Source of the DNA: Gemmatimonadales bacterium
Lineage (GTDB): Bacteria; Gemmatimonadota; Gemmatimonadetes; Gemmatimonadales; GWC2-71-9
Assembly (NCBI GenBank): GCA_039794085.1
Contig: JBDIWC010000007.1
Span: forward strand, 1-64,000
DNA: 64,000 bases
Direction of reading: 5' to 3'
Under the pieces are notes generated by a model. The model was given only the letters and a program-made list of their open reading frames with translations, ran no database searches and was not told where the DNA came from. Below, piece by piece: positions 12,025-62,117 of this stretch. Made by a program: the position numbers and the translations under genes. Within the stretch, counting starts at the first letter, position 1. Each line of letters starts with the position of its first letter.

Positions 12025-12084
12025 GGGGGGGAGGGCATGACTTGGTCTACAGTTTCTGATTTCCCACGGTTCGGGCGGTACTCG

Positions 12085-12876: not shown

Positions 12877-12881
12877 TTCCC

Positions 12882-14515: not shown

Positions 14516-15159
14516 GAGTCACCCCCGTTGTGCCGGCGATCATCCTGGCGGCGGGGAGCCTGCTCCTGGTGGCGGCCCGTCGCCAGGAGGTGGCGGAATT
14601 GCGGGCTCCGCTTTCCACGATCCCCGCAGTTCTGGAGGGCCTGTCAGGCCGGGACCTGACCGTCTCCCCCGAGGAACAGCGGATCGCGGGGATGACGAGT
14701 TATCTGATGCGGGTCTATGAGCGCGACAGTGTGCCGCAGTTCTCTGTCTATGTGGGCTACTACGAGGCGCAACTGCAGGGCCAGAGCATCCATTCACCCA
14801 AGAACTGCCTTCCGGGGGCGGGGTGGGAGCCGGTCGCCGTGTCGAGTGTGACGATTCCGGTTCCGGGCGGAGCCCCTGCTCCCATGGTCAACCGGTACGT
14901 TCTCGAGCGCGGGGCCGACAACAGTCGTGCCCTGGTCTATTACTGGTATCAGGGCCGGGGGCGGGTGGCGTGGAACGAGTACCGCGTGAAGTGGGATCTG
15001 CTCCGGGACAAGGCGCTGGAGGGACGGAGCGAGGAGGCGCTGGTCCGGATTGTGGTTCCGGTCATTCCGGGGGGGGAAGCGACAGCGGACTCGACCGCGT
15101 CGCGGATCGCCGCAAAGTTGATTCCCGCGATCTCCACGATTCTGCCGACCCGGAGTTGA
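14512..15159 (+). CDS. epsI: EpsI family exosortase-associated protein
   Basis: YVGYY, IHSPKNCLPGAGW, LVYYWYQ, ALVRI motifs; adjacent to exosortase. Confidence 0.92.
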   Translation: MRVTPVVPAIILAAGSLLLVAARRQEVAELRAPLSTIPAVLEGLSGRDLTVSPEEQRIAGMTSYLMRVYERDSVPQFSVYVGYYEAQLQGQSIHSPKNCLPGAGWEPVAVSSVTIPVPGGAPAPMVNRYVLERGADNSRALVYYWYQGRGRVAWNEYRVKWDLLRDKALEGRSEEALVRIVVPVIPGGEATADSTASRIAAKLIPAISTILPTRS

Positions 15160-18519: not shown

Positions 18520-18535
18520 CGCAACTACTGTGCCG
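18520..18535 (-). promoter_or_regulatory. Sigma54 -24/-12 promoter of the PEP-CTERM gene
   Basis: CGGCACAGTAGTTGCG, near-consensus. Confidence 0.8.
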
Positions 18536-24350: not shown

Positions 24351-24366
24351 CGGCACGGGACTTGCT
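24351..24366 (+). promoter_or_regulatory. Sigma54 -24/-12 promoter
   Basis: CGGCACGGGACTTGCT, near-perfect consensus, starting 2 nt after the upstream stop. Confidence 0.8.
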
Positions 24367-33996: not shown

Positions 33997-34012
33997 GGGC
34001 ATGACACTTGCG
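33997..34012 (+). promoter_or_regulatory. Sigma54 -24/-12 promoter
   Basis: GGGCATGACACTTGCG, 34 nt before ATG 34046. Confidence 0.65.
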
Positions 34013-44644: not shown

Positions 44645-45380
44645 CGCCACGCGACGCGGGAGCGATGGGATCACGCGGAGATCCTCCGTGTCCTCCGTGT
44701 CCTCCGTGTCCTCCGCGGCCTCTGTGGTGCCCCCCCACGTCACCCTGGATTGCACCACAGAGGACACGGAGGACGCAGAGGGGTGACGGCATCCGCGACA
44801 CGCTCCTCGTCTCGGATTGGCGGGCATCGGCAGGAGGGGCGCCCCGCCCCCCCCACAAGGAACAAGTTCCTGATCTCGGCGCGCGAGGCGTGGAGCCACG
44901 GACATCACACGGAGATCCTCCGTGTCCTCCGCGGCCTCTGTGGTGCCCCCCACGTCACCCTGGATTGAACCACAGAGGACACGGAGGACGCAGAGGGGTG
45001 ACGATATCCCCGACACGCTCCTCGTCTCGCTGGGCGGGCATCGGCAGGATGGGGGCCCCGCCCCGGGCCCCGCCCCCCCCCCGATTCAACCACAGAGAAC
45101 ACGGAGGACGCAGAGGGGTGACGGTATCCCCGACACGTTCCCGATCTTGCGCTCCCGGCATCGGCAAGGAGGTGGCCCCACCACCCCCAACAACAAAATC
45201 CCAGTCTCGGCGCGCGAGGCGTGGAGCCACGGACATCACACGGAGACCCTCCGTGTCCTCCGTGTTCTCTGTGGTGATTCCTTCCGACCTTGCCCGATCC
45301 CATACGCCCGGGCATCGGCAGGATGGGGCCCCTCCACCCCACAACGCCAAGGCCCTATCTCAGCGCGCGAAGCGAGGAGC
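44645..45380. repeat. Second array of the same modular palindromic repeat family
   Basis: CCTCCGTGT x3 at 44683; ACCACAGAG(G/A)ACACGGAGGACGCAGAGGG x3; 47 bp at 44868-44914 identical to 16133-16179. Confidence 0.93.
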
Positions 45381-45381
45381 G

Positions 45382-45408
45382 ACTCCCTACTCCCTACTCC
45401 CTACTCCC
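45382..45408 (-). repeat. GGGAGTA x3 heptamer repeat (minus strand)
   Basis: TACTCCC x3 at 45388-45408; contains the stop codon of the phosphoesterase gene. Confidence 0.85.
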
Positions 45409-46446
45409 TGCTTTCCGGCGTCCGATCACGACGCCGATTCCCATGGATCCGAAGATCAGCAGGGCCAGTGCGGTCAGACGGGCCGGACTGTTGATCGCCT
45501 CCCAGAGGCGTTCCAGCCGGGGGCGGGGCGGAGGGCGGAATTCGTGCACCTGGCGGTAGTGGTGCGGGGTGAAGTGACCCGACGACACCTCGCCGGTCGT
45601 TTCGACGCCCACGGTAAATGCCGGCCCCTCCACCTGGACGCGAAGGAAGGCATCGAACTGGGCGGCAAGGGTCCGGCTCGCCTCCCGGTCCCGCAGGATG
45701 CCAAGGCTCGGATCCCCTCCGATCGAGACCTGGTAGTAGGCGATGCCGTCCCGCTCCAGGTGGGAGAACTTGAGGGGGCCATGGTCTCCGGAAAAGACCG
45801 CACGCACGCCAGCCTCGCGCAGCAGCGGGTGAATCTCACGCCACCACGGTTCGTCGTCGCCCTGCCACCAGAGGAGGTGATGGAGGACGACCACCGTGTG
45901 GGCCGGCGCATCCGGGCGGGCCAGCTCCTCGCGAAGCCACCGCACCTGGGCCGAGTCGAGATCCACGCCGCGGATGTTCCGAGCGAGGGTGGTATCACCA
46001 TCCTCCGGAATCCACACGCTGTTGAGCAGCAGGAACCGCACGTTCCGCATCGTGAAAGAGCGGGGGAGTTCTCCGAACCGCTCCCGGTAGACGTCCCGGG
46101 TCACCAGATCGTTGATCTCATGGTTCCCCGGCACCTGGATTCGAGGCACCCCGACGGTGGCGAGAGCGCTGTCGAGGTCGACCCACTCCTTTTCCACCGC
46201 GGCCCGCCGTCGTGGCGCCTGACCCATGTCTCCCCAGATCTGATCACCCGCCAGGACCACGAGATCGGGTTGGAGGGTGCGGACCTCGGCGAGCAGTTCC
46301 CCCAGGCGGGGGTGGAGCGCGTTGTCCCATCCGCGGATGTGACCCAGAACCACAAAGGACCAGGGGTCGGCGTCCTGGGCACCCAGGGGTGCCACCGCGA
46401 GCATCGCGAGGAGAGCAGACAGCAGGCGCCGGGGAGGACGGGTCAT
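45394..46446 (-). CDS. Exported, C-terminally anchored calcineurin-like metallophosphoesterase
   Basis: Signal peptide LGA|Q; LGHIRG, LAGDQIWGD, PGNHE, VLHH, SGDHG; C-terminal TM + RRK. Confidence 0.85.
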   Translation of the reverse strand: MTRPPRRLLSALLAMLAVAPLGAQDADPWSFVVLGHIRGWDNALHPRLGELLAEVRTLQPDLVVLAGDQIWGDMGQAPRRRAAVEKEWVDLDSALATVGVPRIQVPGNHEINDLVTRDVYRERFGELPRSFTMRNVRFLLLNSVWIPEDGDTTLARNIRGVDLDSAQVRWLREELARPDAPAHTVVVLHHLLWWQGDDEPWWREIHPLLREAGVRAVFSGDHGPLKFSHLERDGIAYYQVSIGGDPSLGILRDREASRTLAAQFDAFLRVQVEGPAFTVGVETTGEVSSGHFTPHHYRQVHEFRPPPRPRLERLWEAINSPARLTALALLIFGSMGIGVVIGRRKAGSRE

Positions 46447-49400
46447 GGAGACTCCGGTCGAAGGGGCGGGGGCCGCTTCACGAGAAGGAGGCGATGCAGC
46501 AGCAGGTGCCCGCGTTTGAGGTCGGTGAGCCCGGTCGAGGTCTGGACCCGCTCGATGCGGTCATCGGGGATCGCGTCGAGCCGAAGGGTGCGCCAGGGTC
46601 CCGGGGGCACCGGAACCACCACCTGCTCGTACTGGGCACGGCCCGGCCGGTGGGAAAACACCACCGGCTCCCCATCACCCGACAGCGTCACCACCACCCG
46701 CTGGAGGTCGCGGCCGCCGAGATCGAGGATCAGAAGGTGTTCCTCGGTGAGGGTCCAGTCGACGTCCCGCTCCATGGCCCCCGCGCGCTGGCTCACCAGA
46801 TCGAGCAGGTCGGTGCGACGGGCCAGGCGCTCACCCTGCACCAGCCGCCATCGTTCGAGAGGGGCAAAGGACGCGCTGAAGGTCTCCTCCTCGACCGCGG
46901 GCACAGGCGGGACGGGACGCCAGTCCGGATTCCCTTCCCGCGAGACCAGCTCCGCCCCGACGATCAGGCCCAGGGCCCGATCCACCTCGGAGCGGTGGAG
47001 GCCCCCGAGGGCGAGCACCGACTCCACGGCGAGGGTATCCAGGGGACCCGGCAGGATCACGCCGGAGACCGAGTCGAGTGAGAAAGGCAGCAATCCCGTG
47101 ATTTCGACTCCGAGGACGCGGGGCCATCCGCCGCTCCCGTAGCGCCAGTTCTTTCGTTGGAGTACGAGTCCGGACCCATTGTCGAGAAGCCGGTTCCAGA
47201 GCAGCAGAGGGGTGGAGCGGTCCTTCACCTCGATGCCGCGGAAACCGCTCTCGATCGTGTTGGCCACCACCACCGGGGCGCTGGCCTCCCCGACGGAGAT
47301 CCCCTTGTCTCCCGACCCCCGGAACGTGTTCCCGGCGATCAAGGGCGAGGAGCCCATCAGGTCGATGGCATCGCCTCCACTCCCGAGAAAGCGGGAGTCG
47401 ACGATGGCCCCGGTGGACATGTCGTAATCGATCGCATCCGAATTGGCGTTCACCAGGTCGCTCCGGACCACCCGGGCCTCGCCCATCAGAACATGGAGGA
47501 GGTCATCCGACCGGACATTGTCGGCGAACCGGCTGTCCTCGAAGCCCACATTCCGGGCCGCGTGGACGTTGATCGCCCCGATGTACTCCACGCCGTCCAC
47601 GAGGGCCCCCCCGCCGCCCTCCACCTGCAGGAACCGGAACCGGCTCCCGCTGGCTCCCCGTCCCTGCAGGGCAATCGTACCCCACGGTCTCGCCGGATCG
47701 AGACGGAGCACCCGGATGGGCCGGTCCGCCGTTCCATTGGCCAGAATCGGGGCCCGGCTCACGAGGGAGACCTCGGGACCGAGCCGGATCGTGGTCCCGG
47801 GCTCGATCCGGAGGGTATCGCCGGGGGGGAGCCGCAGGGTTTCGGTGAGCCGGATATCCCCCGACCAGCGCCGGGGAGTGGAGGTCGGAACCGGAAACTC
47901 CCAGGGGCTGAAGGAGGTCCCGGGTTCGATGAGGGACCCCATCGCCCATTCCCGAGGTTCCACCGGGGTTCCGGTGATCCGGTTCTGCAGCACCGGGATG
48001 AGGTGCCGCGCACCGGCTCCCTCGACAAAGATTCGATAGTGGACCCGGCCCGCGGCAATCCCCCGCTCCGGGGTGCTCCACCCCGGAAGAAGGGCGACCG
48101 GGGTGCGCGCCAGGAAACTCCACCCCGCGCCGTCCCGCTCCCACCGTCCGGCGACTCGCCGGTCCGAACGATCGAGCACTCCATTGCGATCAGTGTCCAG
48201 AACCACGTCTCCCGGCGGTGCGCCGGCGGCGAGGCGAAGGGACACGAGGTCCGCCCCGGTCATTCCCCTGCTCTCGACATCGAGCAGGGCCAGCGACCCC
48301 GCGGATCCGCCGGCCACCACCATGTGCACATCTCCGATCCAGCGATCGAGGACCGCGAGGTTGTGGTGCAGCAGGGTGCGCGAGGAGTCCACCGATCCCA
48401 CCGGCGGAATCACCCCGGCCCGCAGAGTCTCGAAGCGGAGGTAGGGGTGGAAGCGCGCGGTCACCCCGTCGAGAATCGAGTCGGCGTGACTCGCCAGCCC
48501 CGCCTGCATCGCGTCATGCGTCCGGCGCATCGCGGCGTCCACCAGGAACGGATCGCGCAGGGCCTGCTGCCAGAACTCGTTCACGCCGATGCTCGGCCGT
48601 TCCAGGTCGAGGAGCCGAAGGTCCCACGGAAGGGGAGAGAGCAGGTTGTCGGTGGGGTCCTGGTACCAGAACTGGTTGTGGACATCATCCATGTGATAGG
48701 GGTCGCCCACCACGAGCAGGGCCGCCAGGAGCGCGCCGAGGTGGGCGGTGTCCACCACGGCCATGAGATCCCGGTGTTGGTCCGCCGTCGTTCCGCGGAG
48801 CCGTTCCAGCAGATCGAGGATCCGGGTGGGGGGGGGACCGGAGGGTCGGTCGTTCAGGGCCACCCGGTCCCAGATGTACGGATTGCGGAAGAGACTCCGG
48901 GGGAGCCCCTTGTAATACTCGCTCCGTTCCGCGGCGTCGCCGCGATAGATGTTCCCGGGCATCCGTCCCTGGAGGCGGAGCATCGATTCGTCAGCGATCT
49001 CGATCATCCGGTACAACCCGGCAAAGCGCTGGTTCACGAAGACCGGCACGATCTCCTGGCGCGACCCGGGAAGTCCGAAGGTCTGGGCCACCTGCGCCGC
49101 CAGATATTGGGGCACCACGTCCTTCACCGAGAATCCCAGGGTGCGGTATCCGCGCTGGAGGGATTCCCGGGGGGTCCGCAACGTGAAACTGACCTTGGGG
49201 CTCAGCCAGTGGATGCTGTTGTCACCGCGTTTGCGCAACCGAACCCGATCGAGCCGTCCCTGATGCACCACCGTGGCGTCGGTCCAGGCATCGAATCCCT
49301 CCTGCGGGTTGCCGGCCAGGGCGCGCCAGTCGGCGGCGGGGAGAACGAGAGTGAGCACCGCGGGATCATCCTCGTCCGCCTCGAGGTCGCGATCGATGCG

Positions 49401-49643
49401 CACCAGCGACAGGGTGTTCCTCATGACGGAGGCCCGGGCCCGGAACTCTCCCGACAGGCTGCGGGAACGGGACCAGAAATCGTCGAAGTGCAGGGCCGTC
49501 GCATAGGACGCCACGGATTGCAACAGGAGGTAGGCCCCGGCCGTGACGGGAAGCGCGGACGCGAGCACCACGTCGATGAGCCGGAGCCTCCGCCACCACG
49601 GGGCCCGGCTCCCGGGAAGCCCCCGGCGAGGAAAGCGGCTCAC
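46443..49643 (-). CDS. CotH kinase family protein fused to a right-handed beta-helix
   Basis: N-terminal TM; KRGDNS, VFVNQRFAGLYRMIE, HNQFWY, PLPWDL; LRIEPGTTI, PWG, SDAIDYD, GDAIDLM, GDKGISVGE repeats. Confidence 0.88.
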   Translation of the reverse strand: MSRFPRRGLPGSRAPWWRRLRLIDVVLASALPVTAGAYLLLQSVASYATALHFDDFWSRSRSLSGEFRARASVMRNTLSLVRIDRDLEADEDDPAVLTLVLPAADWRALAGNPQEGFDAWTDATVVHQGRLDRVRLRKRGDNSIHWLSPKVSFTLRTPRESLQRGYRTLGFSVKDVVPQYLAAQVAQTFGLPGSRQEIVPVFVNQRFAGLYRMIEIADESMLRLQGRMPGNIYRGDAAERSEYYKGLPRSLFRNPYIWDRVALNDRPSGPPPTRILDLLERLRGTTADQHRDLMAVVDTAHLGALLAALLVVGDPYHMDDVHNQFWYQDPTDNLLSPLPWDLRLLDLERPSIGVNEFWQQALRDPFLVDAAMRRTHDAMQAGLASHADSILDGVTARFHPYLRFETLRAGVIPPVGSVDSSRTLLHHNLAVLDRWIGDVHMVVAGGSAGSLALLDVESRGMTGADLVSLRLAAGAPPGDVVLDTDRNGVLDRSDRRVAGRWERDGAGWSFLARTPVALLPGWSTPERGIAAGRVHYRIFVEGAGARHLIPVLQNRITGTPVEPREWAMGSLIEPGTSFSPWEFPVPTSTPRRWSGDIRLTETLRLPPGDTLRIEPGTTIRLGPEVSLVSRAPILANGTADRPIRVLRLDPARPWGTIALQGRGASGSRFRFLQVEGGGGALVDGVEYIGAINVHAARNVGFEDSRFADNVRSDDLLHVLMGEARVVRSDLVNANSDAIDYDMSTGAIVDSRFLGSGGDAIDLMGSSPLIAGNTFRGSGDKGISVGEASAPVVVANTIESGFRGIEVKDRSTPLLLWNRLLDNGSGLVLQRKNWRYGSGGWPRVLGVEITGLLPFSLDSVSGVILPGPLDTLAVESVLALGGLHRSEVDRALGLIVGAELVSREGNPDWRPVPPVPAVEEETFSASFAPLERWRLVQGERLARRTDLLDLVSQRAGAMERDVDWTLTEEHLLILDLGGRDLQRVVVTLSGDGEPVVFSHRPGRAQYEQVVVPVPPGPWRTLRLDAIPDDRIERVQTSTGLTDLKRGHLLLHRLLLVKRPPPLRPESP

Positions 49644-50731
49644 CCGGGGACCTCGATGCGGTCGGCCACCGTCTGGTCCGGTACCACCACCACCCGGGCG
49701 GCGGACCGACGCGGGCCGTCGGGGTCGAGCCGGTTGCGGTAACTCGTCTCCACCATCGTCCAGGTCTCCTCGTCCACCGGCCGCCGGATCCGGACTTGGA
49801 AGCGGAGACGGACGCCGTCCGACGTCCCGGCCGGGACGGGCACCACCACCTCGGTTCCGGGACTGCCCGGCCCGGCGACCACGGGATCCCCCGTGGACCC
49901 TCGGGTGGTCACCGGTCCGGGAACGCCAGCCCGGAGCGGCAGATCCACCCGCACGTTCCGGATGTCGAGGGGAAATCCGGCCGTCCCCAGACGCACCGAC
50001 GAGGAGTCGGGGAAACTCCCGGTGAGGGTCACCTCATGCCAGACCCCATCCACCGGCACCACCGACCAGGTGGTACTCGTCCCGACATGCACGGCGAGGG
50101 CGAGATACTGTTGTGCCTCGAGGAAGGATTCCCACCGGGTGATCACCTCGGCGAAGGCACCGCGATCGAAATCATAGCGGAGCACCCCACGCAACGAGGG
50201 GAGATGGGTCGGGTGAATCTCCAGCACCCGGGCAAAGGCGTCTCTCGCCTCCACCGGAATGGTCCAGGTGCCCTCCAGGCGCTCCCACGCGGCGCCGAGT
50301 TCGTAGCTGTTGCGATAGTTCCGGGGGTCGTACGCCTGCGCGGCCTGGTAGGCCAGGAGGGCCCGGTTGGGGCGTCCCTGGGCCTCATAGGTGCGGGCCA
50401 GCGTGTGGAGGAGTCGCTCCCGTTCGGTGTCCCGTCGTCCGCGCGCCGTGCGGGCCGGGAAGCGGCGATCGAGGTCGAGGAGATGCGCCTCGGCCTCGTC
50501 GAGCCGACCCTCCGCCAGGAGAAGCTCCCCTCGGTCCACCGCGCGGACCCACCCCGTCTCCCGGTCCCGCAGGAGGCGCTCCACCCGCCAGAAGACCCGG
50601 TCGCGGAGGGGCGGAAGCACCAGGAGGGCGAGTCCGAGAGCCAGGAGCGCCACCCAGGCCGTGAGAAAGCGGCGTTCGTGCCGGTAGTAGAAGGTCCGCA
50701 CCGGGGAGGACTCGCCGGGATGGTTCATCAC
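49640..50731 (-). CDS. Membrane-anchored TPR protein with C-terminal beta domain
   Basis: N-terminal TM; LARTYEAQGRPNRALLAYQAAQAYDP and ARDAFARVLEIHPTH TPR-like helices. Confidence 0.8.
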   Translation of the reverse strand: MMNHPGESSPVRTFYYRHERRFLTAWVALLALGLALLVLPPLRDRVFWRVERLLRDRETGWVRAVDRGELLLAEGRLDEAEAHLLDLDRRFPARTARGRRDTERERLLHTLARTYEAQGRPNRALLAYQAAQAYDPRNYRNSYELGAAWERLEGTWTIPVEARDAFARVLEIHPTHLPSLRGVLRYDFDRGAFAEVITRWESFLEAQQYLALAVHVGTSTTWSVVPVDGVWHEVTLTGSFPDSSSVRLGTAGFPLDIRNVRVDLPLRAGVPGPVTTRGSTGDPVVAGPGSPGTEVVVPVPAGTSDGVRLRFQVRIRRPVDEETWTMVETSYRNRLDPDGPRRSAARVVVVPDQTVADRIEVPG

Positions 50732-51426
50732 ACGTTGATGTTTTCCTGGCCGACGAGAATGGCCACCTTGTGATTCCTCACCAACGGCCGGAGATCGTCG
50801 AGGAGGGTGGCCTCCGAGACCCGCGGCCTGAGCTCCACCGAGTACACGAGTTCCACCACGTCGCCCTCACCCAGGGTCTCCACGCTCAAGAGCGAGGCCT
50901 CGCGCAGATGGCGGTGGAACACCTCGGTGAAGACCGTGTGATAGTCGAGGTCGGAGGGGAGGTGCACCTTGAGGAGGGCCTCGCGACTGGTCGCCGCCCC
51001 GATCTCGAACCGGCTCAGAGTGTAGATCATCCCCCCCATCGCCAGGGCAAAGATGACGGCGGTGAGGTAGAACCCGGTGCCGGTGGCCATCCCGACGGCC
51101 ATGGCCACGAAGATGAAGGCCACGTCCCGGCTGTCCTTGACCGCATTCCGGAAGCGAATGATCGAGAGGGCCCCGACCAGGGTGAACGCCCGCGCAATGT
51201 TGCTTCCGATCACGAGCATGATAAGGGAGATGGTGACCCCCATGATGATCATGGCATGCACGAACGACACCGAGTAGGAGAGCCCGCGGTGGGAGATCCG
51301 GTACACGTACGCCAGGAGCAGGTTGAGCACGAAGCTCAACCCGAGGGCCACCACGGTTTCCCAGACGCCAAATCCCCCGACCTGCGAGGCGCCCGACGTC
51401 AACTGTCTGATGAATTCGTCCACCAC
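50728..51426 (-). CDS. DUF4956 family membrane protein
   Basis: IGSNIARAFTLVGALSIIRFRNAVKD, AVGMATGTG; soluble C-terminal domain. Confidence 0.9.
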   Translation of the reverse strand: MVDEFIRQLTSGASQVGGFGVWETVVALGLSFVLNLLLAYVYRISHRGLSYSVSFVHAMIIMGVTISLIMLVIGSNIARAFTLVGALSIIRFRNAVKDSRDVAFIFVAMAVGMATGTGFYLTAVIFALAMGGMIYTLSRFEIGAATSREALLKVHLPSDLDYHTVFTEVFHRHLREASLLSVETLGEGDVVELVYSVELRPRVSEATLLDDLRPLVRNHKVAILVGQENINV

Positions 51427-51442
51427 GCCTCCTGACAGGAGT

Positions 51443-52153
51443 TCAGGTGAGTGCGCCGCCGTACACGGCTCGATCCACGGCGGAGCAGTACTTGGACATG
51501 CGCACCATCGGTAGCCCGAGCCGGGCGATCGACTTGGTGAGCCAGAGCGGCGCCCCTCCGGTGAACTTCACTTCCATGACCGCGGTGCGGGGATCGAGCA
51601 CCGCGGCCCCGGTGTCGAAGGGGGTGACCAGATCGAACCCGGTCGTCCGGTACTGGATGCGGGTATCGAAGTTGACCCGCAGTGCCGGCTCGTAACGCCC
51701 CATGAAGGCTCGCCGCCGATACCGGATCGCGCACCGGGGCGCCAGGTTGTGACGCCGAAAGAGGGTCCAGGCCTCCCGCATCACCGGATCGGTCACATCG
51801 TCACCCGGGTGCGTTACGAACCGTTCCCGGGCCTCCGCCACCGACATCCGCAATCGGCGCTTCTGCTGGGTCCGGTCCACCCGCTGCTTGATCTCCAGAA
51901 AGAGTTCCTCGCTCCCCACATAGCGCCGGAGACGCACCTTGCGCCGGACCATGAGGCCCTCGACCTTTTCCCAGAAGAGGGAGTACTCGGGGGAATCCCA
52001 GTAGACGCTGTAGACCGCATACCCCCACTCCGGATCCCCGTGCTCATCGGCCGTGAGGTACTCGCCGAGCGCGGCCCGGATGGCCGAGACCTCCCGCGCC
52101 GCCACGAGATACTTGAGCTCATAGCGGTTCCGGGTGTCGGTCAGATGTGGCAT
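51443..52153 (-). CDS. VTC (polyphosphate polymerase, CYTH/TTM-like) domain protein
   Basis: RYELKY, YSVYWDS, RRKVRLRRY, FLEIK, YRRRAF, RVNFD, VMEVK, SKYC. Confidence 0.92.
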   Translation of the reverse strand: MPHLTDTRNRYELKYLVAAREVSAIRAALGEYLTADEHGDPEWGYAVYSVYWDSPEYSLFWEKVEGLMVRRKVRLRRYVGSEELFLEIKQRVDRTQQKRRLRMSVAEARERFVTHPGDDVTDPVMREAWTLFRRHNLAPRCAIRYRRRAFMGRYEPALRVNFDTRIQYRTTGFDLVTPFDTGAAVLDPRTAVMEVKFTGGAPLWLTKSIARLGLPMVRMSKYCSAVDRAVYGGALT

Positions 52154-52180
52154 GGCACCGCTCCCTGTCGGAACGTGCTC

Positions 52181-52196
52181 TGCATCGCAAGTCCCA
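52181..52196 (-). promoter_or_regulatory. Candidate sigma54 promoter of the VTC-CotH module
   Basis: TGGGACTTGCGATGCA, GG-N10-GC, 28 nt before the ATG. Confidence 0.5.
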
Positions 52197-52210
52197 TGCC
52201 CTCCGGGACC

Positions 52211-53632
52211 TCACACAGTCTGGGCTCCGCGCCCAGTGCGCACCAGGCGCAGTCCTCCCCCCGGAGCCAGCGCGAGCAGGTAGACCAGTGCTCCCGTGGG
52301 CACGCCGATCCACAGCGGAAGAGGAACCGCCCAGAGGACGAGGGCCATGACCCCGGCGGCGAGTGCGGCGTGCCATCCCGCCGACACAATCCGGGCCTCG
52401 TACCCTTCACGGTGGGCGCTCCGCAGCACCAGGGCTGTCCGCACCAGTTCGGTTCCGAGGGTGGCACCGGCCGCCCCGAGGAGTCCCCACCGGGGGATGA
52501 GGAGGACATTGAGGACAAGGTTGACCGCGACGCCCCGAACCGAGGCCGCAAGCACCAGCGGATGGCGGTCTGAGGCGACCAGCCCCGCCTGTCCCACGTT
52601 GCGGAGGAGGGAGATCGGCAGGGAGAGGAGCAGCAGACCGAGGGCGGGGCCGCCACGCAGATACTCGGGCCCGTACAGAGTCTGCAGGAGGGACCCGGTC
52701 ACCAGCACGCCCCCCACCGCCACGGGAATCCCGAGCGCCAGCACCTGCCGTACTCCGAGTTGGAAAGCGCTCCGATCCACTCGTCCCTCCCCGTGAGATC
52801 GGGCCAGGGTGGGGAGAAGGCTGTGATAGTACGTGACCCCGATGTTCAGGAAGAAACTGACCGGGGCGTAGACCGCCACATACACGCCCACCGCCGCCGT
52901 CCCGTGAAAGCCCCTCAGGAAGAGCACATCGGCGTTGAACATGACGAGACCGAGCAGGGCATGGAGGGCCAGGGGACGTGCCGACCGGAGAACGGGGAGG
53001 GCCCGGTTCCACCATCCTCGCCAGCGGATCGGACCGATCACACCGGCGAGCCCGATGCCGAGCGAGGCGGCCCCCGCACCCTCCGCCGCCAGCTGAAGCA
53101 AGGGCACCCGGGTCAGATCGGCGCCTCGGCGCACCAGCAGCAACACCAGGAGGAGAAAGAGGCCGTCCGCGAGGATCCGGGCCCCGGCGGCGCTCCGGGC
53201 CCGCCCCAGCCCCAGGCAGGCCCAGCGCAGGTTCAGAGCCAGGGGAATCAGGGTCAGGGAGATCAGGGCCAGGATGGTCCCATCGGGGGCCGGCAGGAGG
53301 AGAATTCCTCCGAGCGATGTCACACCAATCAGGGCGAGAGCCAGCACCACCCGGGCGATGATCAGGGCGGGAGCGGTGTGTTGGAGGAAGGTCGGGTCCA
53401 GCGCCACTCGTCGCACGCCGACCGAATCGAGTCCGCCTTCGACCAGCACCACGAGATAGAGACGGACCGTGAGGGCGAAACCGATGACGCCGAACCCTTC
53501 GGCGCCGAGGGTCCGGGCCAGCACGATGGTGGCGACAAATCCGAGAATCCGTGCCGCCACTTCCCCCGAGGCGAGCACGGAAAAAAGCCGCCCCGGGGAG
53601 GGTCCTGGGGCGGAGGCACTCGGAGAGGTCAG
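52211..53632 (-). CDS. Wzx flippase (polysaccharide biosynthesis protein)
   Basis: LARTLGAEGFG, NADVLFL, VGVY, LYGPEY, NLVLNVLLIPRWGLLGAA; start uncertain (53578-53632). Confidence 0.9.
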   Translation of the reverse strand: MTSPSASAPGPSPGRLFSVLASGEVAARILGFVATIVLARTLGAEGFGVIGFALTVRLYLVVLVEGGLDSVGVRRVALDPTFLQHTAPALIIARVVLALALIGVTSLGGILLLPAPDGTILALISLTLIPLALNLRWACLGLGRARSAAGARILADGLFLLLVLLLVRRGADLTRVPLLQLAAEGAGAASLGIGLAGVIGPIRWRGWWNRALPVLRSARPLALHALLGLVMFNADVLFLRGFHGTAAVGVYVAVYAPVSFFLNIGVTYYHSLLPTLARSHGEGRVDRSAFQLGVRQVLALGIPVAVGGVLVTGSLLQTLYGPEYLRGGPALGLLLLSLPISLLRNVGQAGLVASDRHPLVLAASVRGVAVNLVLNVLLIPRWGLLGAAGATLGTELVRTALVLRSAHREGYEARIVSAGWHAALAAGVMALVLWAVPLPLWIGVPTGALVYLLALAPGGGLRLVRTGRGAQTV

Positions 53633-53925
53633 AGCCGGTACTCGGTCAGCTTGTTGTAGACCGTCCCGATGACTCGGCCGAAGCCGTACCCCACCACGAA
53701 TCCGTACACCGCTCCGATGAGGCTCCCGGGAAAGGACACCGAATACCCGGGGAAGAAGACGGCCAGAAGCTGGAGATGCTGCCCGGCATCGGGCCCCCCG
53801 CTCCAGACCAGAAAATTGGTCGCCAGGAAGAGGACACCCGCGCACACCAACCCGAAGGCGACACCCCAGGCCCGCCCGTTGAGCCGTTGAATGACCGCGG
53901 CCACTTCGGCTTGTTCCGTCGTCAT
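53629..53925 (-). CDS. Small 2-TM membrane protein
   Basis: RBS present; LLAVFFPGYSVSFPGSLIGAVYGFVVG; paralog of the neighbour. Confidence 0.8.
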   Translation of the reverse strand: MTTEQAEVAAVIQRLNGRAWGVAFGLVCAGVLFLATNFLVWSGGPDAGQHLQLLAVFFPGYSVSFPGSLIGAVYGFVVGYGFGRVIGTVYNKLTEYRL

Positions 53926-53964: not shown

Positions 53965-54354
53965 TCAGATGTGGTCAAGAAAATCACGAGTCCGGGCCAG
54001 CTCGGCTCGGGTCCGAATGAGGAACACCTGGGTGGCGATCACGACGTTCCGGATGAAGGCCAGGAACCATCCCGCCACGGCCCCGACCACGAATCCCCAC
54101 CCGAATCCGATGAGCGCTCCGGTCCAGGAGACGGAGTAGCCGGCAAAGTAGGCCCCGAGCAGGTCGAGGGAGAACGTCGGGTCCGTGGGCACTCCGCCCC
54201 CCTCCACGAGGAGATCGATCACGGTCAGAAGGAGAATAAGGGCACCCGTGGCCGCGCCGACGGCGATGCCGAACCGGCGCTTGTGCAGGGGAGCGAAGGC
54301 GAAGGCGATCGCCTCCAGCGCGGGGGCGTCCGAAGCGGGGCGGGCTGGTGTCAT
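53965..54354 (-). CDS. Small 2-TM membrane protein
   Basis: GAGGAG RBS; LLGAYFAGYSVSWTGALIGFGWGFVVG. Confidence 0.8.
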   Translation of the reverse strand: MTPARPASDAPALEAIAFAFAPLHKRRFGIAVGAATGALILLLTVIDLLVEGGGVPTDPTFSLDLLGAYFAGYSVSWTGALIGFGWGFVVGAVAGWFLAFIRNVVIATQVFLIRTRAELARTRDFLDHI

Positions 54355-56296: not shown

Positions 56297-57280
56297 TTAC
56301 CTGCCGGCTCCGGTGACGTGGAGGGTCCGCTGATCGGCCACGACATCCGCGATGATCTGCTCCAGGGAGGTCCGGGGACGGTATCCCACCACCCGTTCCA
56401 GCTTTCTCACATCGGGCACCCGTCGCTGCATGTCCTCGAAGCCGGCCGCGTACGCCTCCGCATAGGGGATGAGGCGGATCTCGGACCGGCTCTCCGCCGC
56501 GGCCCTCACCATCTCCGCCAGCTGGAGCATCGTGACCTCGCGGTCCGACCCCACGTTGAAGACCTCGCCGACCGCTCCGGGCGTTCCGATGAGCCGCAGC
56601 GTTGCCTCCACCGCATCCTGCACATGGCCAAAGCAGCGCGACTGGGTCCCGTCTCCATAGACCGTGATCGGCTCGCCCCGAACCGCCTGGGCGGCGAAGG
56701 TCGGAAGCACCATGCCATAGCGTCCGGTCTGCCGGGGTCCCACCGTGTTGAAGAAACGGGTGACAATCACCGGAACCTGTTTCTCGCGCCAATAGGCGAG
56801 CGCCAGCCACTCATCGAGCGCCTTGGAGCAGGCATAGGCCCACCGGGAGTGGGTGGTGGGGCCGAGGGTCAGGTCGTCCTCCTCGCGGAAGGGAATCCGC
56901 AGACCCTTCCCGTACACCTCCGACGTCGAGGCGACCACCACGAGCTTCCCCTTCTTGGCCGCGGCACCCAACACCACCTCGGTGGCGCGCACGTTGGTCT
57001 CGATGGTGTGCACCGGACGCTCGACGATGAGGCGCACCCCCACGGCCGCCGCGAGGTGGACCGTGACATCGCACCGGTCCACCAGTTCCGCCACCAACGG
57101 AACGTCCGTGGCCGACCCGATCCGATACTCGAATCCCGGGCGCCCGACACAGCCGGCGATATTGTCCATGCTCCCCGTCGAGAGATCGTCGAGAACGAGA
57201 ACCTGGTCCCCGCGGGCCAGCAACCGCTCCGCGAGATGACTTCCGATGAATCCGGCTCCGCCGGTCACGCACACCTTCAT
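56297..57280 (-). CDS. NAD-dependent nucleotide-sugar epimerase/decarboxylase
   Basis: TGGAGFIGSH, ASTSEVYGK, YACSK, RFFNTVGPRQ. Confidence 0.93.
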   Translation of the reverse strand: MKVCVTGGAGFIGSHLAERLLARGDQVLVLDDLSTGSMDNIAGCVGRPGFEYRIGSATDVPLVAELVDRCDVTVHLAAAVGVRLIVERPVHTIETNVRATEVVLGAAAKKGKLVVVASTSEVYGKGLRIPFREEDDLTLGPTTHSRWAYACSKALDEWLALAYWREKQVPVIVTRFFNTVGPRQTGRYGMVLPTFAAQAVRGEPITVYGDGTQSRCFGHVQDAVEATLRLIGTPGAVGEVFNVGSDREVTMLQLAEMVRAAAESRSEIRLIPYAEAYAAGFEDMQRRVPDVRKLERVVGYRPRTSLEQIIADVVADQRTLHVTGAGR

Positions 57281-58524
57281 CCAGCCTCCTGACGGCGCGC
57301 CCGCCGGGCCGCGGCGCGCGCCACAATGTCGAGATACTGCGGAATCACGGCGGCCTCCGACCAGTGGGTCAGGAAGGCCTCCCGCGCAGAAACGGCCCGC
57401 CGTTCCCGGTGCCCGGGATCGGCCTGGAGCCGGTGCAGAGCGGCGCGAAGCTCCTCCGGCGTGTCGAACAACTCTCCCCCCCCGGCTCGCTCCACGATCT
57501 CCGGAAAGGGGCCGAACCGGCGCGCCACCACGGGGACCCCCTGCCGGAACGCCTCGATCAGGATGATCCCGAAGGTTTCATAACAGACCGAGGGCACAAT
57601 CAGTGCCACCGCGTGACGATAGATGCGGGAGAGCGTCTCGGGGTCGACCCGTCCCAGGAACCGGACCTGGGGCATCCCCTCCGCCAGCTGGCGGAGGTCG
57701 GGGGCGTACTCGCCGTCTCCCGCGACCAGCAGGTCGGCATCGGGGTAGTCCCGGAAGAGGGGGATGACGTCCTGAAGCCCCTTGATCCGCTCCAGTCGGC
57801 CCACAAAGAGGAAATACGGGCGGTGATGCACAGCGGGGGACCGGTCCCCCGAGTCCGGTTCCCCTCCCTCATCAGGGAGGAAATACGGCAAGACCTCCAT
57901 CGGACGGGGAAAGCCGAATTCGGCGTGCTTCCGCCGGCTGAACTCGCTCATGGCGATGAAGGTGTCCACCTGATCCAACGCCCGCTCGAGAGTGCCGAGG
58001 CGTCGCCACCACTGCGGGGGTCTCCGATAGCTCAGTTGACAGCGAATGCAGGCACGCTCGGGACACGGCTCCCGCCCGAATCGCCACAGCACGTGCGTGG
58101 GGCAGACGAGCCAATGTTCGTGCGCCATGTACAGCTTGACCCCTCGGCCGTACCGGAAGAGCCCGGGCCCTCCCACCAGGGAGACATTGTGATAGTTGAT
58201 CACGTCGAAACGGCCCTGGTCGAGAATCCGGCGGATGCGGGCCCCGGTCAGCACCGGGCGGCCGAATTGCTGGGTGAGCAGCGGGGAGAGGGTGCCGAAA
58301 CCGCTCCGCAGCGGGATCACGTCGAGTCCCGGGGTCGGTCCCGGGCTCTCCGGGAGGGGGCCTGGATGGAGGGCCGCGAAGGCATCGACGTCGTGGATCA
58401 CGGTCACATGATGGCCGGCGCGGACCAGCCCTAAGGCCAGTCGCTCGACTCCGATCGCGTCCCCCCCGAAGTGGTAGGGGGGATAGAAGGTGGTCAGGAA
58501 GGCGAAGCGAAGAGACTCGGTCAT
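57277..58524 (-). CDS. GT4 glycosyltransferase
   Basis: FYPPYHFGG, HEHWLVCP, VGRLERIKG, PSVCYETFGIILIEAF; ATGA overlap at 58524. Confidence 0.92.
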   Translation of the reverse strand: MTESLRFAFLTTFYPPYHFGGDAIGVERLALGLVRAGHHVTVIHDVDAFAALHPGPLPESPGPTPGLDVIPLRSGFGTLSPLLTQQFGRPVLTGARIRRILDQGRFDVINYHNVSLVGGPGLFRYGRGVKLYMAHEHWLVCPTHVLWRFGREPCPERACIRCQLSYRRPPQWWRRLGTLERALDQVDTFIAMSEFSRRKHAEFGFPRPMEVLPYFLPDEGGEPDSGDRSPAVHHRPYFLFVGRLERIKGLQDVIPLFRDYPDADLLVAGDGEYAPDLRQLAEGMPQVRFLGRVDPETLSRIYRHAVALIVPSVCYETFGIILIEAFRQGVPVVARRFGPFPEIVERAGGGELFDTPEELRAALHRLQADPGHRERRAVSAREAFLTHWSEAAVIPQYLDIVARAAARRARRQEAG

Positions 58525-59687
58525 GCCCGCGCCGCTTCCCGGATCGCCCCGAGGGTGGCAGCCGCCGTCCGGTCCCACGAGAGGGCTCGCGCCCGGATCA
58601 ACGCCACGCTCGCCAGGGCCTCTCTTTCCTCCGGGTGGTCCACCAGCGTTCGGATCGCCTCGGTAAGGGCGGTTCGGTCCCCCGGGCGGACCCAGATTCC
58701 CCCACCGTCCAGGAGTTGGGGGAGCGGGCTCTCCGTGGTGGCCACAACAGGGGTGGCGCAGGCGGCGGCCTCGACGGCCGGGAGGCCAAACCCTTCCGCC
58801 TCGGAGGGGAGGATGCACGCCACAGCACCGGTGTAGAGGTGACGCAACTCTTCGTCGGGCACGAACCCGGTCCAATGAACCAGCGGACCGGTCCCGAGGG
58901 TCACGATCGACCGGAGGAGAGACTCCCGGTGCTCGTGGAACACGTCGCTCCCGACCGAGCCGACCAACAGCAGGTGCACGGGTGTGGCCCTCGTCACTGC
59001 GGCGTGGGCCTCGAGGAGGACATCGAGTCGCTTGTGGGGATTGAACCCTCCGACATAGATGATCCAGGGAGTTCCGGCCGGCACCCCTGCTGCCGCACCC
59101 GCCCGGCGGACCTCCTCGGCGGGCGAGGGAGTGAAGACCGGGGCCGGGGCTTCCGGGGCCACTCGAAGGCGATCCCGGCGGACGCCGAGCACCCGGACCA
59201 GATCCTCCGCGGCGAAGTCGGAGACGGTCAGGACCCGGGTGGCCTGGGCGAGGGCGAGGCGCACCTTGAGGGTCCAGAAGAGGCGGGCCCGGCGCCCGGG
59301 GATGGTGAGTTCGGGAAACCGTTCCACGATGGCGTCGTGGATGGTGACCACGGAGGGAAGCCCGAGAGGGAGGGGAAACCAGGTGTAGACTGTCGGCGCG
59401 AAGAAGACATCGAGGCGGGCCCGGGCCACGGCCCGGTGCATCCGGAAAAGATCGCGGGGCGACCGGTAACCCTCCGCTGACGCGGCACGGGTCGGTGCGG
59501 CCTGCAGCGGGACCTCGCGCACCTGGACGCCCGGCAAACCGGGAAAGTCCCGCCGGGACTCGGCATCGAGGAAGCAGACGAACTCCTCTCCCGGGGCGGT
59601 CCGCACCAGGCCGGGGAGCACCTGACGAAGGAAACGTCCGTACCCCCGCCCGTTGGCCCAGGAGGTGGCGTCGATCCCGATCCGCAT
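58521..59687 (-). CDS. GT4 glycosyltransferase
   Basis: MRIGIDA, VVTIHD, YVGGFNPHK, PSEAEGFGLPAVEAAACA. Confidence 0.93.
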   Translation of the reverse strand: MRIGIDATSWANGRGYGRFLRQVLPGLVRTAPGEEFVCFLDAESRRDFPGLPGVQVREVPLQAAPTRAASAEGYRSPRDLFRMHRAVARARLDVFFAPTVYTWFPLPLGLPSVVTIHDAIVERFPELTIPGRRARLFWTLKVRLALAQATRVLTVSDFAAEDLVRVLGVRRDRLRVAPEAPAPVFTPSPAEEVRRAGAAAGVPAGTPWIIYVGGFNPHKRLDVLLEAHAAVTRATPVHLLLVGSVGSDVFHEHRESLLRSIVTLGTGPLVHWTGFVPDEELRHLYTGAVACILPSEAEGFGLPAVEAAACATPVVATTESPLPQLLDGGGIWVRPGDRTALTEAIRTLVDHPEEREALASVALIRARALSWDRTAAATLGAIREAARA

Positions 59688-59693
59688 CGGGCG

Positions 59694-61188
59694 TCAGGGC
59701 GACGCGGGAACGAGGGGGGGGGGGGGCGGGCCGGTCGAGGCGCTGCTCCTCGTGATACTCGAAGTCGGTGTTGACCTCCCAGACGTCGTGGGCGGCGCCG
59801 AACATGTTCCAGACGGCCATCATCGCCGTGAGCATCGAGTGGTCCTGGTTGTTGTACTTGTGCATCCCGTTCCGGCCCACGGTGTGCAGGTTGGGAATCG
59901 GATCGATGAACCCGCGGATGGTGTCGAGATGTCCGCGATACGCGGCGTCATAAATCGGATAGGCCTTGGGCATGCGGATCACGGTGCCGTCTCTCACCCG
60001 GGAAGCGGTGGCGATGCCCAACGCATCGAGTTCCCGGGTGGCAAGCGCCACAAGGTCGGCATCGGAGGTGGTCCAGAGGCCGTCTCCCTCGAAGCAGAAG
60101 TACTCCATGCCGAGACAGGTCATCCCCGGTTCCGGAATCATGGCCCGGCTCCAGTTGTTGAAGTTCTGGATCCGCCCCACCTGGACTCCCGGGGTGTGGA
60201 TGTAGATCCAGTTGTCGGGGAAGAGATTGTCCCCTTCGAGCATGAGAGCCACCACCAGGAAGTCCCGGTAGCCGAGCCCCCGGGCCGCGGCCTGCACCGG
60301 GGCGGGCACGGCGGGCGCGAAGGAGTGTACCAGCTCCCGCACCGGCATGGTGGAAATCACATGGCGCGCCGGGAAGAGTTGTTCCCCGCCCTCCGCGTTC
60401 CGGGCCCGGACTCCCGTCACCCGTCCCTCCTCCAGTTCGAGGGCGGTGACCGGGTGCCGGAGGAGAACCGGGTTCCCCATCTCCACGATCCGGTCCCGGC
60501 AGGTCTCCCACATCTGCCCCGGACCGAGTCGGGGGTACTGGAACTCATGAATCAACGTCTTGATCGCCGTGCTACGCCGGTTGAGCGAGGTGGCAGAGAG
60601 GATCGCCCGGGCGAGCGAGAGCCCCTGGATCCGCTGGGCCGCCCACTCCGCCCGGATCTCGGTGCAGGGCATGCCCCAGACCTTCTCGGTGTAGGTCTTG
60701 AAGAAGATCTCGAAGAGCCGCTTCCCGAACCGATTGGTGACCCACTGTTCGAAGTTTTCCTCCACCGGGTGGGGACGCCAGTGCCAGCGGAGGTAGCTCA
60801 GCACCATCCGCACGGCCTCGATCACGCCGAGCCCTCGAAGCGCGTTGCCGGCCTTGAGGGGATAGTCGAAATACTTCCCATCGTAGAGAATCCGGGACAT
60901 GCGCGGCACGGAGATGAACTCGTCCCCCAGAATCTCGTTCCAGAGGTTGAGCACCGGAGTGATCTTGGTGAAGAAGCGATGCCCCCCGATATCGAAGCGG
61001 TATCCCTTGTATCGCGCGGTGCGGGAGATGCCTCCGACCATGTCGTCGGCCTCGAGCACGGTGACGGGATATCCGTCGCGGGACAGGAGATAGGCTGCGG
61101 TGAGCCCCGCAGGACCCGCACCGACCACCACGACCGGATCTCCCGGCCGGATCGGATCGACTTCCCGTGGATGCGTCGTGATTCCCAT
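59694..61188 (-). CDS. FAD-dependent oxidoreductase (protoporphyrinogen oxidase/UDP-Galp mutase-like); stop codon out of frame because of a C13 tract
   Basis: GAGPAGL, DIGGHRFF, YTEKVWG, AYPIY, GRNGMHKYNNQDHSM; with C12 it ends ...PPLVPASP* at 59694-59696. Confidence 0.88.
59714..59726. repeat. G13/C13 homopolymer tract
   Basis: 13 consecutive G on the + strand. Confidence 0.95.
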
Positions 61189-61199
61189 TCCTGTCCCCT

Positions 61200-62117
61200 T
61201 CAACAGACCTGAGAGAGAGCGGTGCCGGGCCCGCACCAGAATCCCACCATTTCACCCGCCGCCCACCCGAGGGCGAAGAGCGCCAGGAGGGGCAGTGACC
61301 GGAGCAACTCGCGGCGGTGGCGGCCTTTGTTCCAGATGGTCCTGACAATCCGCAAATAGAGTACCGGAGGGAGGGCCACCCGGGCCGCGCCGGCCACAAA
61401 GCGGGCCGCGACAGGGGTTCCCGAGGCCCGGACACCCGCCCAGGCCCGGGAATAGAGGTATCGCTGCGACAGGTACTCTCCCACAGAGTAGTGTTTCTTG
61501 TGGCCGACACGAATCTCGGGATGGGAGACCAGTACGACACCGCCTCGCTGCATGGCCGCGTGGAGGTGATCCTCCCACCGACCGGCTCGCCAGGCCTCGC
61601 GGTGGGCGAGCAGGAGTTCCCGGTCGTAGCTGGTGTTGTTTCCGGTGATCCCCGGCACCGGCCCCGCCGGAAGGGGGGGGATCAGGTGATGGTACTCGCA
61701 GAGAAATGCGGCCCAGTCCACCAGGCGCTCGGTGGCCGCATTCTCCACGGCGCCGCCCACCACCTGTTCCCCCCGGGCGTGCGCCTCGAGGTGGGCGCGG
61801 GCCCACCCGGGCGGCACGATCACGTGGTCCTCGATCACGGCCACCACGGGCGCCGTGGCCGCTTCGAAGGCGAGGGCGCGCAGATCGGGAATCGAGGTGT
61901 CCACCGGCGCGGCGAGGACCAGCACGGACGGGAACCGGCCCGCCACCTCACGCCGGAGTGCCTCACCGACCCGGTCCACCACCAGAATCTCCAGTGGCGT
62001 CCGACCCGATTCCTCCACCAGAGCAACCAGGCATCCCGCGAGATCACCCAGGCCATTGACCGAGGGCACCACGACAGAGAGCTGGGCGCCGGAAGAACCC
62101 GTCACGGGCCCGGTCAT
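61200..62117 (-). CDS. GT2-like glycosyltransferase
   Basis: LSVVVPS, ILVVD, VIEDH, VVGGAV, GNNTSY, WED; ATGA overlap. Confidence 0.85.
   Translation of the reverse strand: MTGPVTGSSGAQLSVVVPSVNGLGDLAGCLVALVEESGRTPLEILVVDRVGEALRREVAGRFPSVLVLAAPVDTSIPDLRALAFEAATAPVVAVIEDHVIVPPGWARAHLEAHARGEQVVGGAVENAATERLVDWAAFLCEYHHLIPPLPAGPVPGITGNNTSYDRELLLAHREAWRAGRWEDHLHAAMQRGGVVLVSHPEIRVGHKKHYSVGEYLSQRYLYSRAWAGVRASGTPVAARFVAGAARVALPPVLYLRIVRTIWNKGRHRRELLRSLPLLALFALGWAAGEMVGFWCGPGTALSQVC

Follow-up and report, generated by a model that had tools for sequence, protein, structure and literature searches.

A conserved VTC–DUF4956–CotH gene cassette in a Gemmatimonadales surface-glycan island and a tentative polyphosphate relay to a periplasmic kinase

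We analysed a 64,000-nucleotide stretch of a Gemmatimonadales genome (GenBank assembly GCA_039794085.1, contig JBDIWC010000007.1, positions 1 to 64,000; hereafter the window) and in it a five-gene operon encoding a VTC-domain protein, a DUF4956 membrane protein, a TPR protein, a CotH-type kinase fused to a beta-helix and a metallophosphoesterase. We found that the VTC, DUF4956 and kinase genes form the core of a cassette that recurs in distant bacteria, that DUF4956 is elsewhere fused to a second, unrelated polyphosphate synthase, and that the kinase clade keeps a conserved histidine where the catalytic aspartate would be expected. The reading that we prefer, although we hold it at somewhat short of even confidence, is a polyphosphate relay that feeds a His-loop periplasmic kinase phosphorylating a surface glycan. 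Its basis consists of gene order, the linkage of the trio, conserved catalytic residues, protein folds and the DUF4956–PPK1 fusions.

Results

Composition and conservation of the cassette

The five genes are co-directional and the last four are joined by overlaps, as had been read from the letters alone in an earlier note on this DNA (the original prediction): the junctions measure +16, -4 (GTGA), -4 (GTGA) and -4 (ATGA). All five Pfam assignments lie above cut-off (Table 1), and this HMM check bears out the families originally proposed. The GC content at third codon positions of the five open reading frames (ORFs) is 0.81-0.90.

Among 61 genomes, the distribution is patchy, with a strong cassette match in 6 and one additional weak match interrupted by a stop codon. 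We recovered the cassette in five relatives, four of which hold the complete set of genes in order; in the last one, the cassette is broken off by the end of the contig. At the closest related locus (L014) the VTC protein is 94% identical. A wider set of 80 close loci, many of them short, was found in GTDB genomes with the VTC profile. Most belong to Gemmatimonadota or Planctomycetota, and a few to Myxococcota/Deltaproteobacteria and other groups; DUF4956 is present at 77 of the 80, the TPR gene at 68, the CotH/beta-helix kinase at 57 and the phosphoesterase at 39. Matches to VTC and DUF4956 also exist in C. glutamicum and B. thetaiotaomicron. To avoid circularity, a distant set of 80 metagenome loci was collected by starting from the kinase, 39 distant CotH/beta-helix proteins serving as queries. 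VTC was present at 68 of these, DUF4956 at 59 and either one at 73, and all 19 loci whose flanks reach 2.5 kb or more on each side of the kinase carried both partners, in several gene orders, which upholds the earlier claim that such neighbourhoods occur in other bacteria. The phosphoesterase was seen at 3 of the 80 distant loci. A strict count gave a TPR gene at 4 of them, a figure that is understated, as an anchored helical gene often immediately precedes the kinase gene and the TPR profile weakly matches 5 of 11 such genes chosen by hand (E 2.6e-7 to 0.021). On these counts, the core of the cassette is VTC, DUF4956 and the kinase; the TPR gene is common and the phosphoesterase an extra.

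Five close loci (L053, L060, L063, L065 and L079) show VTC-DUF4956-TPR without an adjoining CotH gene. At three of them a gene with a peptidase-M1 domain follows closely, and at L079 a kinase gene begins about 8 kb away.

Table 1. Position of the cassette genes and of the other features of the window
Feature	Position	Strand	Remarks
VTC	51443-52153	-	236 aa; PF09359 5.9e-38
DUF4956	50728-51426	-	232 aa; PF16316 6.6e-15
TPR protein	49640-50731	-	363 aa; TPR_2 1e-8
CotH/beta-helix	46443-49643	-	1066 aa; PF08757 1e-6 and Beta_helix 4.7e-10
Metallophosphoesterase (calcineurin-like)	45394-46446	-	350 aa; PF00149 2.5e-10
Sigma-54 (-24/-12)-like motif	52187-52201	-	flippase-VTC gap; 2 mismatches to the consensus
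Wzx-type flippase gene	52211-53845	-	directly upstream of VTC; PF01943 1.2e-14
Wzc, Wza-like, sugar transferase, exosortase and EpsI genes	8036-15159	+	same island
Exosortase	13499-14515		31 kb from the operon
PEP-CTERM gene	17559-18407	-	TIGR02595, 18 bits against a cut-off of 16; 27 kb from the operon

The VTC protein as a polyphosphate polymerase

The VTC protein is soluble and consists of the VTC domain only, without SPX. Searching the PDB with the single sequence gave no match and a profile was needed; the profile, built from 103 sequences, retrieved Vtc chains only, Vtc4 being the best (5.2e-13). In a Foldseek search with the predicted model (predicted local distance difference test, pLDDT, 93), Vtc4 again ranked at the top (E 1e-15, query TM-score (TMq) 0.73), and the best hydrolase-type triphosphate tunnel metalloenzyme (TTM) was YgiF (4.4e-8, TMq 0.48). 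Residues R10, K14, R74, R76, K89, E194 and K196 align with R196, K200, R264, R266, K281, E426 and K428 of Vtc4 and are invariant wherever aligned among the 103 homologues, R74, R76, K89, E194 and K196 being unchanged in all 103. Three of the Vtc4 residues, R264, R266 and E426, are those mutated to inactivate that enzyme (PMC9911596). The invariant triplet S220-K221-Y222 is the likely counterpart of the catalytic K458 of Vtc4, the HMMER alignment having stopped just short of it. Hydrolase TTMs are separated from the polymerase by an acidic patch (PMC4641920), and at two of the three Glu positions of the hydrolase second-metal site the VTC protein has Arg10 and Lys196, as mapped by motif and not by alignment, and Glu12 is retained. 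Sequence and modelling therefore favour a polymerase over a hydrolase, in line with the original prediction, and the protein likely polymerises ATP into polyphosphate.

Genomic links of DUF4956 with polyphosphate synthases

The DUF4956 inner-membrane protein has several hydrophobic segments and is composed of an MgtC-like membrane part, whose match to MgtC/SapB is weak and far below cut-off, and a soluble C-terminal domain. Its basic residues R79, R91, R93, K97 and R100 are invariant in 71 of 71 homologues. The predicted binding of VTC to three DUF4956 copies scored 0.45, against 0.00 for the best control; the runs shared at least 68% of contacts, and the partner pLDDT was 73 or higher. Of 157 solved pairs, 116 reached the mark set for such scores, as did 2 of 215 mismatched pairs; among the pairs at the mark, 18 of the 157 solved ones and both mismatches scored at most 0.60. 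The prediction thus gives weak support to the docking of VTC on a DUF4956 oligomer.

The genome has one VTC gene and three further DUF4956 genes. Over the 61 genomes, we counted 40 DUF4956 copies above cut-off outside VTC loci, leaving out 3 below cut-off and 6 linked to VTC. PPK1 lies within 10 kb of 13 of the 40, and one of two exported kinase-like genes within 5 kb of 29. A single ORF encodes both DUF4956 and a complete PPK1 in three relatives from three genera (L098:7035-10625, L099:3175-5976 and L100:2453-6406). DUF4956 thus pairs with two unrelated polyphosphate synthases, VTC and PPK1, which ties it to the polymer, its role as a channel being only putative. For this tie, these links, read from gene sequences, are stronger evidence than the binding prediction. 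The earlier proposal of DUF4956 as the partner of VTC is accordingly sustained on the side of polyphosphate synthesis, by the fusions, and weakly on the side of physical binding. Export of polyphosphate through DUF4956 appears on balance probable.

The DUF4956-PPK1 fusions occur with and without a CYTH domain, and two of them adjoin CHAD-domain genes. Two of the further DUF4956 genes stand in settings of their own. On contig C60 (L094:5592-14537), DUF4956 is followed by an outer-membrane-barrel-like protein with N-terminal kinase-like motifs, recognised by eye, and then by a CYTH-PPK1 fusion; the DUF4956/barrel pairing within 5 kb holds for 12 of the 40 copies in relatives. On contig C19 (L095:6545-8851), where VTC is absent, the gene immediately downstream of DUF4956 encodes an exported 345-aa protein that matches CotH weakly (Pfam E 0.0019), and this pairing recurs for 17 of the 40 copies. 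We considered both exported neighbours as CotH relatives, but profile comparison did not confirm this (probability 0.6% and 0.15%), and the kinase label of both families is based on motifs read by eye.

A CotH/beta-helix protein with a modified catalytic loop

The kinase was modelled over 1066 aa with a pLDDT of 92.1 and a predicted template modelling score (pTM) of 0.90; here too, a PDB search with the single sequence gave no match and a profile was needed. Residues 93-439 match the CotH of B. cereus (5jda; Z 22.3, root-mean-square deviation (rmsd) 3.1, 321 aligned). Residues ~588-874 form a right-handed beta-helix that matches polysaccharide-acting folds (AlgG 4nk8; Z 26.9, rmsd 2.2, 257 aligned), and the protein also has beta-sandwich regions; weak CBM29 matches (E 5e-4) were obtained as well. 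An N-terminal hydrophobic segment was found in all 116 homologues, and in 112 of them there is more positive charge ahead of this anchor than behind it (the membrane anchors of the cassette proteins were assigned from hydropathy and charge). This charge pattern points to the periplasm, and the kinase domain is likely extracytoplasmic, where the original prediction had placed it.

R139, G140, K150, E219, N323 and D341 are invariant in the 116 homologues. The two catalytic Asp residues of the B. subtilis CotH, D228 and D251 (PMC7821199), are 23 residues apart, the same spacing as D224-D247 of B. cereus. D341 is the counterpart of D251, the metal-binding Asp, and N323 is the Asn of the catalytic loop. 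We extended the comparison to the wider clade, 321 clusters at E <=1e-30, by taking 141 new sequences from the best 150 matches, of which 137 were scored and 4 lacked a span over the site. D341 is kept in 135 of the 137 and N323 in all of them. The slot of the canonical catalytic Asp (D228), however, is taken by Y316 in the helix register or by M318 in the Asn register; a His six residues before the Asn (N-6, His317 here) is present in 135 of 137, and an Asp at N-7 to N-5 in 2. Since the equivalents of the Arg, Gly, Lys, Glu, Asn and metal-binding Asp are conserved, we favour altered chemistry over a dead site. The CotH fold, D341 and N323 are as in CotH protein kinases; the catalytic Asp is out of register and a conserved His is found instead, which weakens the reading of the protein as an ordinary Ser/Thr kinase.

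A shifted D314 or D319 may act as the catalytic Asp. D314 was tried in this role and rejected: in the ungapped helix register it corresponds to the Asn of N-x-D, and it is confined to the subfamily of this kinase. D319 is a Ser in 34 of 50 members of this subfamily.

The TPR protein and the phosphoesterase

The TPR protein matches TPR profiles and has an N-terminal hydrophobic anchor in 63 of 63 homologues; a search of the Atlas with its C-terminal part gave no named structural look-alike. It is likely a scaffold. The phosphoesterase is likely exported and anchored at its C-terminus, as judged from its sequence. Its motifs GH36xRG, GD68, GNH109 and GD221xG were compared with purple acid phosphatase and with the canonical binuclear set D-x-H, GDxxD/Y, GNH, H and GHxH: in 38 of 38 sequences the first Asp is His36 and GHxH is GDxG, with GD68 and GNH kept. 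The calcineurin-like fold family is clear, but canonical phosphoesterase activity is uncertain on this evidence. A general eraser, as first supposed, is at odds with the rarity of the gene at distant loci and with these altered metal ligands; the eraser role is possible but unsupported.

Candidate acceptors of phosphate

The cassette keeps company with glycan genes. Flippase, glycosyltransferase or sugar-nucleotide genes occur at 52 of 68 close loci, and at 35 of the 39 that are at least 15 kb long. An SGNH gene is found at 11 of the 68, usually right behind the TPR gene. Genes of sulfate activation (3'-phosphoadenosine-5'-phosphosulfate (PAPS) reductase-like, CysN-like, CysQ/adenosine-5'-phosphosulfate (APS) kinase) lie near the cassette at 9 of the 68 (L022, L026, L061, L078, L081 and others). 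The SGNH and sulfate-activation genes suggest a parallel glycan decoration.

The PEP-CTERM protein of the window had been named as another substrate; its Ser+Thr content is 17%, against 8-15% in other window genes. An exosortase was found in 34 of 50 carrier genomes, on the cassette contig 30-71 kb away in 10, at 146 kb in one and on another contig in 23; its presence on the cassette contig makes the island context real in Gemmatimonadota. Among the 61 relatives, it is present in 6 of 6 carriers and 20 of 55 others, genomes that are kin and not independent. By contrast, with two models we found no exosortase in 7 of 7 Planctomycetota carriers, nor in G082 and G100, these being metagenome-assembled genomes that are possibly incomplete, and none within the flanks, up to 10 kb, of the 80 close loci. 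The expected co-occurrence with exosortase is therefore frequent but not obligate. Since none was found in the Planctomycetota carriers, the cassette seems independent of PEP-CTERM sorting; the case for the PEP-CTERM protein as substrate is weakened, and a glycan is the better guess.

Genomic surroundings and promoter

The whole window makes up a single large surface-glycan island, which includes Wzc, Wza, a sugar transferase, exosortase, EpsI, the PEP-CTERM gene and many glycosyltransferases, and the neighbours of the cassette include Wzx, GT2/GT4 and GT-C glycosyltransferases and genes of the exosortase island. The operon does belong to the PEP-CTERM/exopolysaccharide locus in which it had been placed, in the sense that the island is the same, but exosortase, Wzc, Wza and the PEP-CTERM gene are 27-37 kb off and not adjacent. 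The end of the flippase gene is separated from VTC by 57 bp; the true start of this gene is probably within the listed ORF, and a homologue is present at 29 of 80 related loci.

A sigma-54-like promoter of its own had also been claimed for the operon. Motifs were scored against the sigma-54 consensus. Within the window, 63 matches were found where 50.5 were expected, so that the site is at chance level on these data alone; yet a motif with at least 8 of 10 consensus positions recurs within 130 nt upstream of VTC at 28 of 79 related loci, which are kin (one of the 80 was left out for its short flank), against 3.6% of random windows. As 27 of the 28 motif-bearing loci are from Gemmatimonadota, the motif is a trait of one lineage. 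A sigma-70 promoter was looked for at the cassette and none was found. Further sigma-54-like motifs lie in the island at 24351-24365 (+), 33997-34011 (+) and 18521-18535 (-). At L171:761-10493, a distant VTC-DUF4956-x-CotH cassette stands directly downstream of a PilS/PilR-like sigma-54 two-component pair.

Other features of the island were noted. Two tandem small membrane proteins (53629-53925 and 53965-54354, - strand) resemble NF037947 'holin_4' weakly, under the cut-off; since homologues are found among glycan genes at 10-11 of 80 related loci, they are probably not holins. Arrays of a ~115-nt intergenic repeat containing a palindrome lie at 44680-45345 and 15200-16250, and the repeat has 67 blastn matches across 20 contigs of the genome. 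A 1319-aa ORF (57277-61236, - strand) joins a flavin adenine dinucleotide (FAD) oxidoreductase and a GT4 and spans another GT4 gene in another frame; it is probably a chance open frame, because relatives keep separate genes. The FAD oxidoreductase family is found near the cassette at 32 of 80 loci, directly upstream of VTC in many Planctomycetota.

Discussion

A tentative relay and its difficulties

The periplasm is not known to contain ATP. In the relay that we prefer, cytoplasmic VTC would polymerise ATP into polyphosphate while docked on the DUF4956 oligomer, through which the chain would reach the periplasm. There, the anchored CotH/beta-helix protein would transfer phosphate from polyphosphate to a surface glycan likely made by the surrounding genes, the acceptor being held on the beta-helix and His317 either serving as a base or forming a phospho-His intermediate. 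The TPR protein would keep the kinase in position, and the phosphoesterase, a lineage-specific extra, may trim or recycle the polymer. We infer both the use of polyphosphate as donor and the glycan acceptor on the beta-helix.

Several observations weigh against this scheme. A DUF4956 profile found no solved relative and no Vtc chain in the PDB, hence no detectable kinship with the VTC membrane domain, and the basic residues of DUF4956 may be located in cytoplasmic loops rather than in a pore. The match of the beta-helix is generic, because AlgG, AlgE4 and a non-glycan autotransporter score within 1 Z unit, and clear glycan genes were seen at 7 of 17 distant loci (65 hand-picked ORFs). Given the loss of the canonical Asp, the protein could be a pseudokinase; conversely, E215 and E219 are kept and align with the ATP-using CotH of B. 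cereus around the likely hinge, so that a nucleotide donor is possible. The VTC protein keeps Glu12 where Vtc4 has Thr198. Finally, in Streptococcus intermedius, where the same trio is SIR_1592-1594, no aggregation defect is reported for the polymerase mutant (SIR_1593), whereas the DUF4956 and CotH knockouts aggregate less, the former with more Pel and the latter with less (PMC12345266). Such a pattern does not follow from the relay, and these phenotypes count against a simple linear version of it.

Alternative explanations

Polyphosphate might itself be the surface product, exported by VTC/DUF4956 and either grafted as whole chains onto the glycan by the His-loop CotH or bound and presented by it as a pseudokinase, with the phosphoesterase setting chain length. 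The canonical Asp that is out of register in 135 of 137 clade members would suit this scheme, as would fusions of DUF4956 to PPK1 that need no kinase in the same ORF, and extracellular polyphosphate resistant to exopolyphosphatase (PPX) is reported in B. cereus, in which the authors find no VTC4 homologue (PMC13484657). We nevertheless consider it unlikely, as the Arg, Lys, Asn and metal-binding Asp equivalents of the kinase are all conserved and no gene for an outer-membrane duct turned up among the families that recur nearby. The same relay could instead phosphorylate a protein, either the PEP-CTERM protein or the periplasmic machinery of glycan assembly, and thereby regulate polysaccharide output. 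The frequency of exosortase in carriers and the Ser+Thr-rich PEP-CTERM protein speak for this; the failure to find exosortase in the Planctomycetota carriers, in G082 and G100 and in the flanks of the loci, together with the beta-helix fusion and the changed catalytic loop, makes it rather unlikely.

It is also conceivable that no polymer is exported: DUF4956, MgtC-like and with a regulatory C-terminal domain, would sense phosphate or energy, or pass ATP, polyphosphate would be a cytoplasmic store or signal, and the kinase would use ATP or act independently. In S. intermedius, the DUF4956 and CotH knockouts shift Pel in opposite directions and no phenotype is reported for the polymerase, which fits such an arrangement, as do the weak MgtC similarity of DUF4956, the putative standing of its pore and the exported kinase-like genes, which accompany non-VTC copies more often than PPK1 does. 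The PPK1 fusion and the pairing with two unrelated synthases point, on the contrary, to physical handling of the polymer; moreover, we know of no exporter of ATP to the periplasm, and we regard this possibility as distinctly unlikely. The VTC protein, lastly, might be a triphosphate hydrolase or another TTM enzyme within a cassette that recycles envelope phosphate. Besides the retained Glu12, AtTTM3 gives a precedent, being Vtc4-like in structure and yet a tripolyphosphatase (PMC4641920), and since a Vtc4-like fold can thus be a hydrolase, polyphosphate synthesis by VTC is likely only. Profile and fold however place the protein nearer Vtc4 than any hydrolase, the acidic patch reads by motif as largely basic, and PPK1 appears to replace VTC beside other DUF4956 copies; this last explanation strikes us as improbable.

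Relation to known systems

A trio of cotH, polyphosphate polymerase and DUF4956 genes is described beside Gram-positive pel operons, where CotH was guessed to regulate Pel via protein phosphorylation (bioRxiv 10.1101/768473). The same three families are contiguous there, by exopolysaccharide genes, with a secreted CotH and without an assigned mechanism. The cassette described here differs in its setting, a diderm island of Wzx/exosortase type with a sigma-54-like motif and no adjacent pelDEADAFG, in a CotH fused to a beta-helix and not to FN3, with His for Asp, and in its additional TPR and phosphoesterase genes. The authors of the 2025 S. intermedius study did not find the trio outside pel loci (PMC12345266); the 80 close and 80 distant loci, by contrast, place it in many non-pel settings. 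We found no publication proposing polyphosphate export or donor use for these genes in the literature searched, which included few subscription papers. The original statement that they have no assigned function therefore holds in that literature, although the three genes have been published together and give mixed phenotypes when knocked out in S. intermedius. The trio is already known, without function; we did not find its diderm His-loop/beta-helix variant or the linkage statistics in print.

With the eukaryotic VTC complex (Vtc4/Vtc3/Vtc1; PDB 3G3Q, 7YTJ and 8I6V), the cassette shares a TTM tunnel enzyme with the catalytic residues of Vtc4 and a small membrane partner with conserved basic residues. 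It departs from it in lacking SPX, in encoding the enzyme and the membrane part as separate genes, in Glu12 for Thr198, in a DUF4956 without detectable homology to the three-helix membrane domain of Vtc proteins and in a genetically attached kinase. The kinase has the fold of the Bacillus spore-coat CotH (PDB 5JD9/5JDA) and keeps its Arg-Gly, Lys, Asn and Trp-Asp motifs, but it is membrane-anchored, likely periplasmic and 1066 aa long with its beta-helix, and has the conserved His for the catalytic Asp. A looser parallel is the alginate acetylation relay of AlgI/AlgJ/AlgX with AlgG and the TPR protein AlgK, in which a membrane step supplies an anchored periplasmic transferase with a donor from the cytoplasm, TPR and beta-helix proteins standing by; the proteins are unrelated and the transferred group is another, so this is an analogy only.

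Significance

In its broadest form, the proposal is that DUF4956 is a polyphosphate translocase coupling to VTC or PPK1 and that the members of the large CotH/beta-helix clade are polysaccharide kinases that depend on the His and are fuelled by polyphosphate, which together would amount to a widespread ATP-independent phosphorylation of envelope glycans. We put this forward as doubtful but conceivable. If true, it would answer how bacteria place polyphosphate outside the cytoplasm and would name the fuel of the many CotH-type kinases that are exported to a compartment not known to contain ATP. It would also give DUF4956 a function, account for the unassigned accessory genes of pel loci and add phosphorylation to the known periplasmic decorations of glycans. 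The small soluble VTC protein, His317 and D341 of the kinase and R79, R91 and R93 of DUF4956 offer direct handles on each step of the relay.

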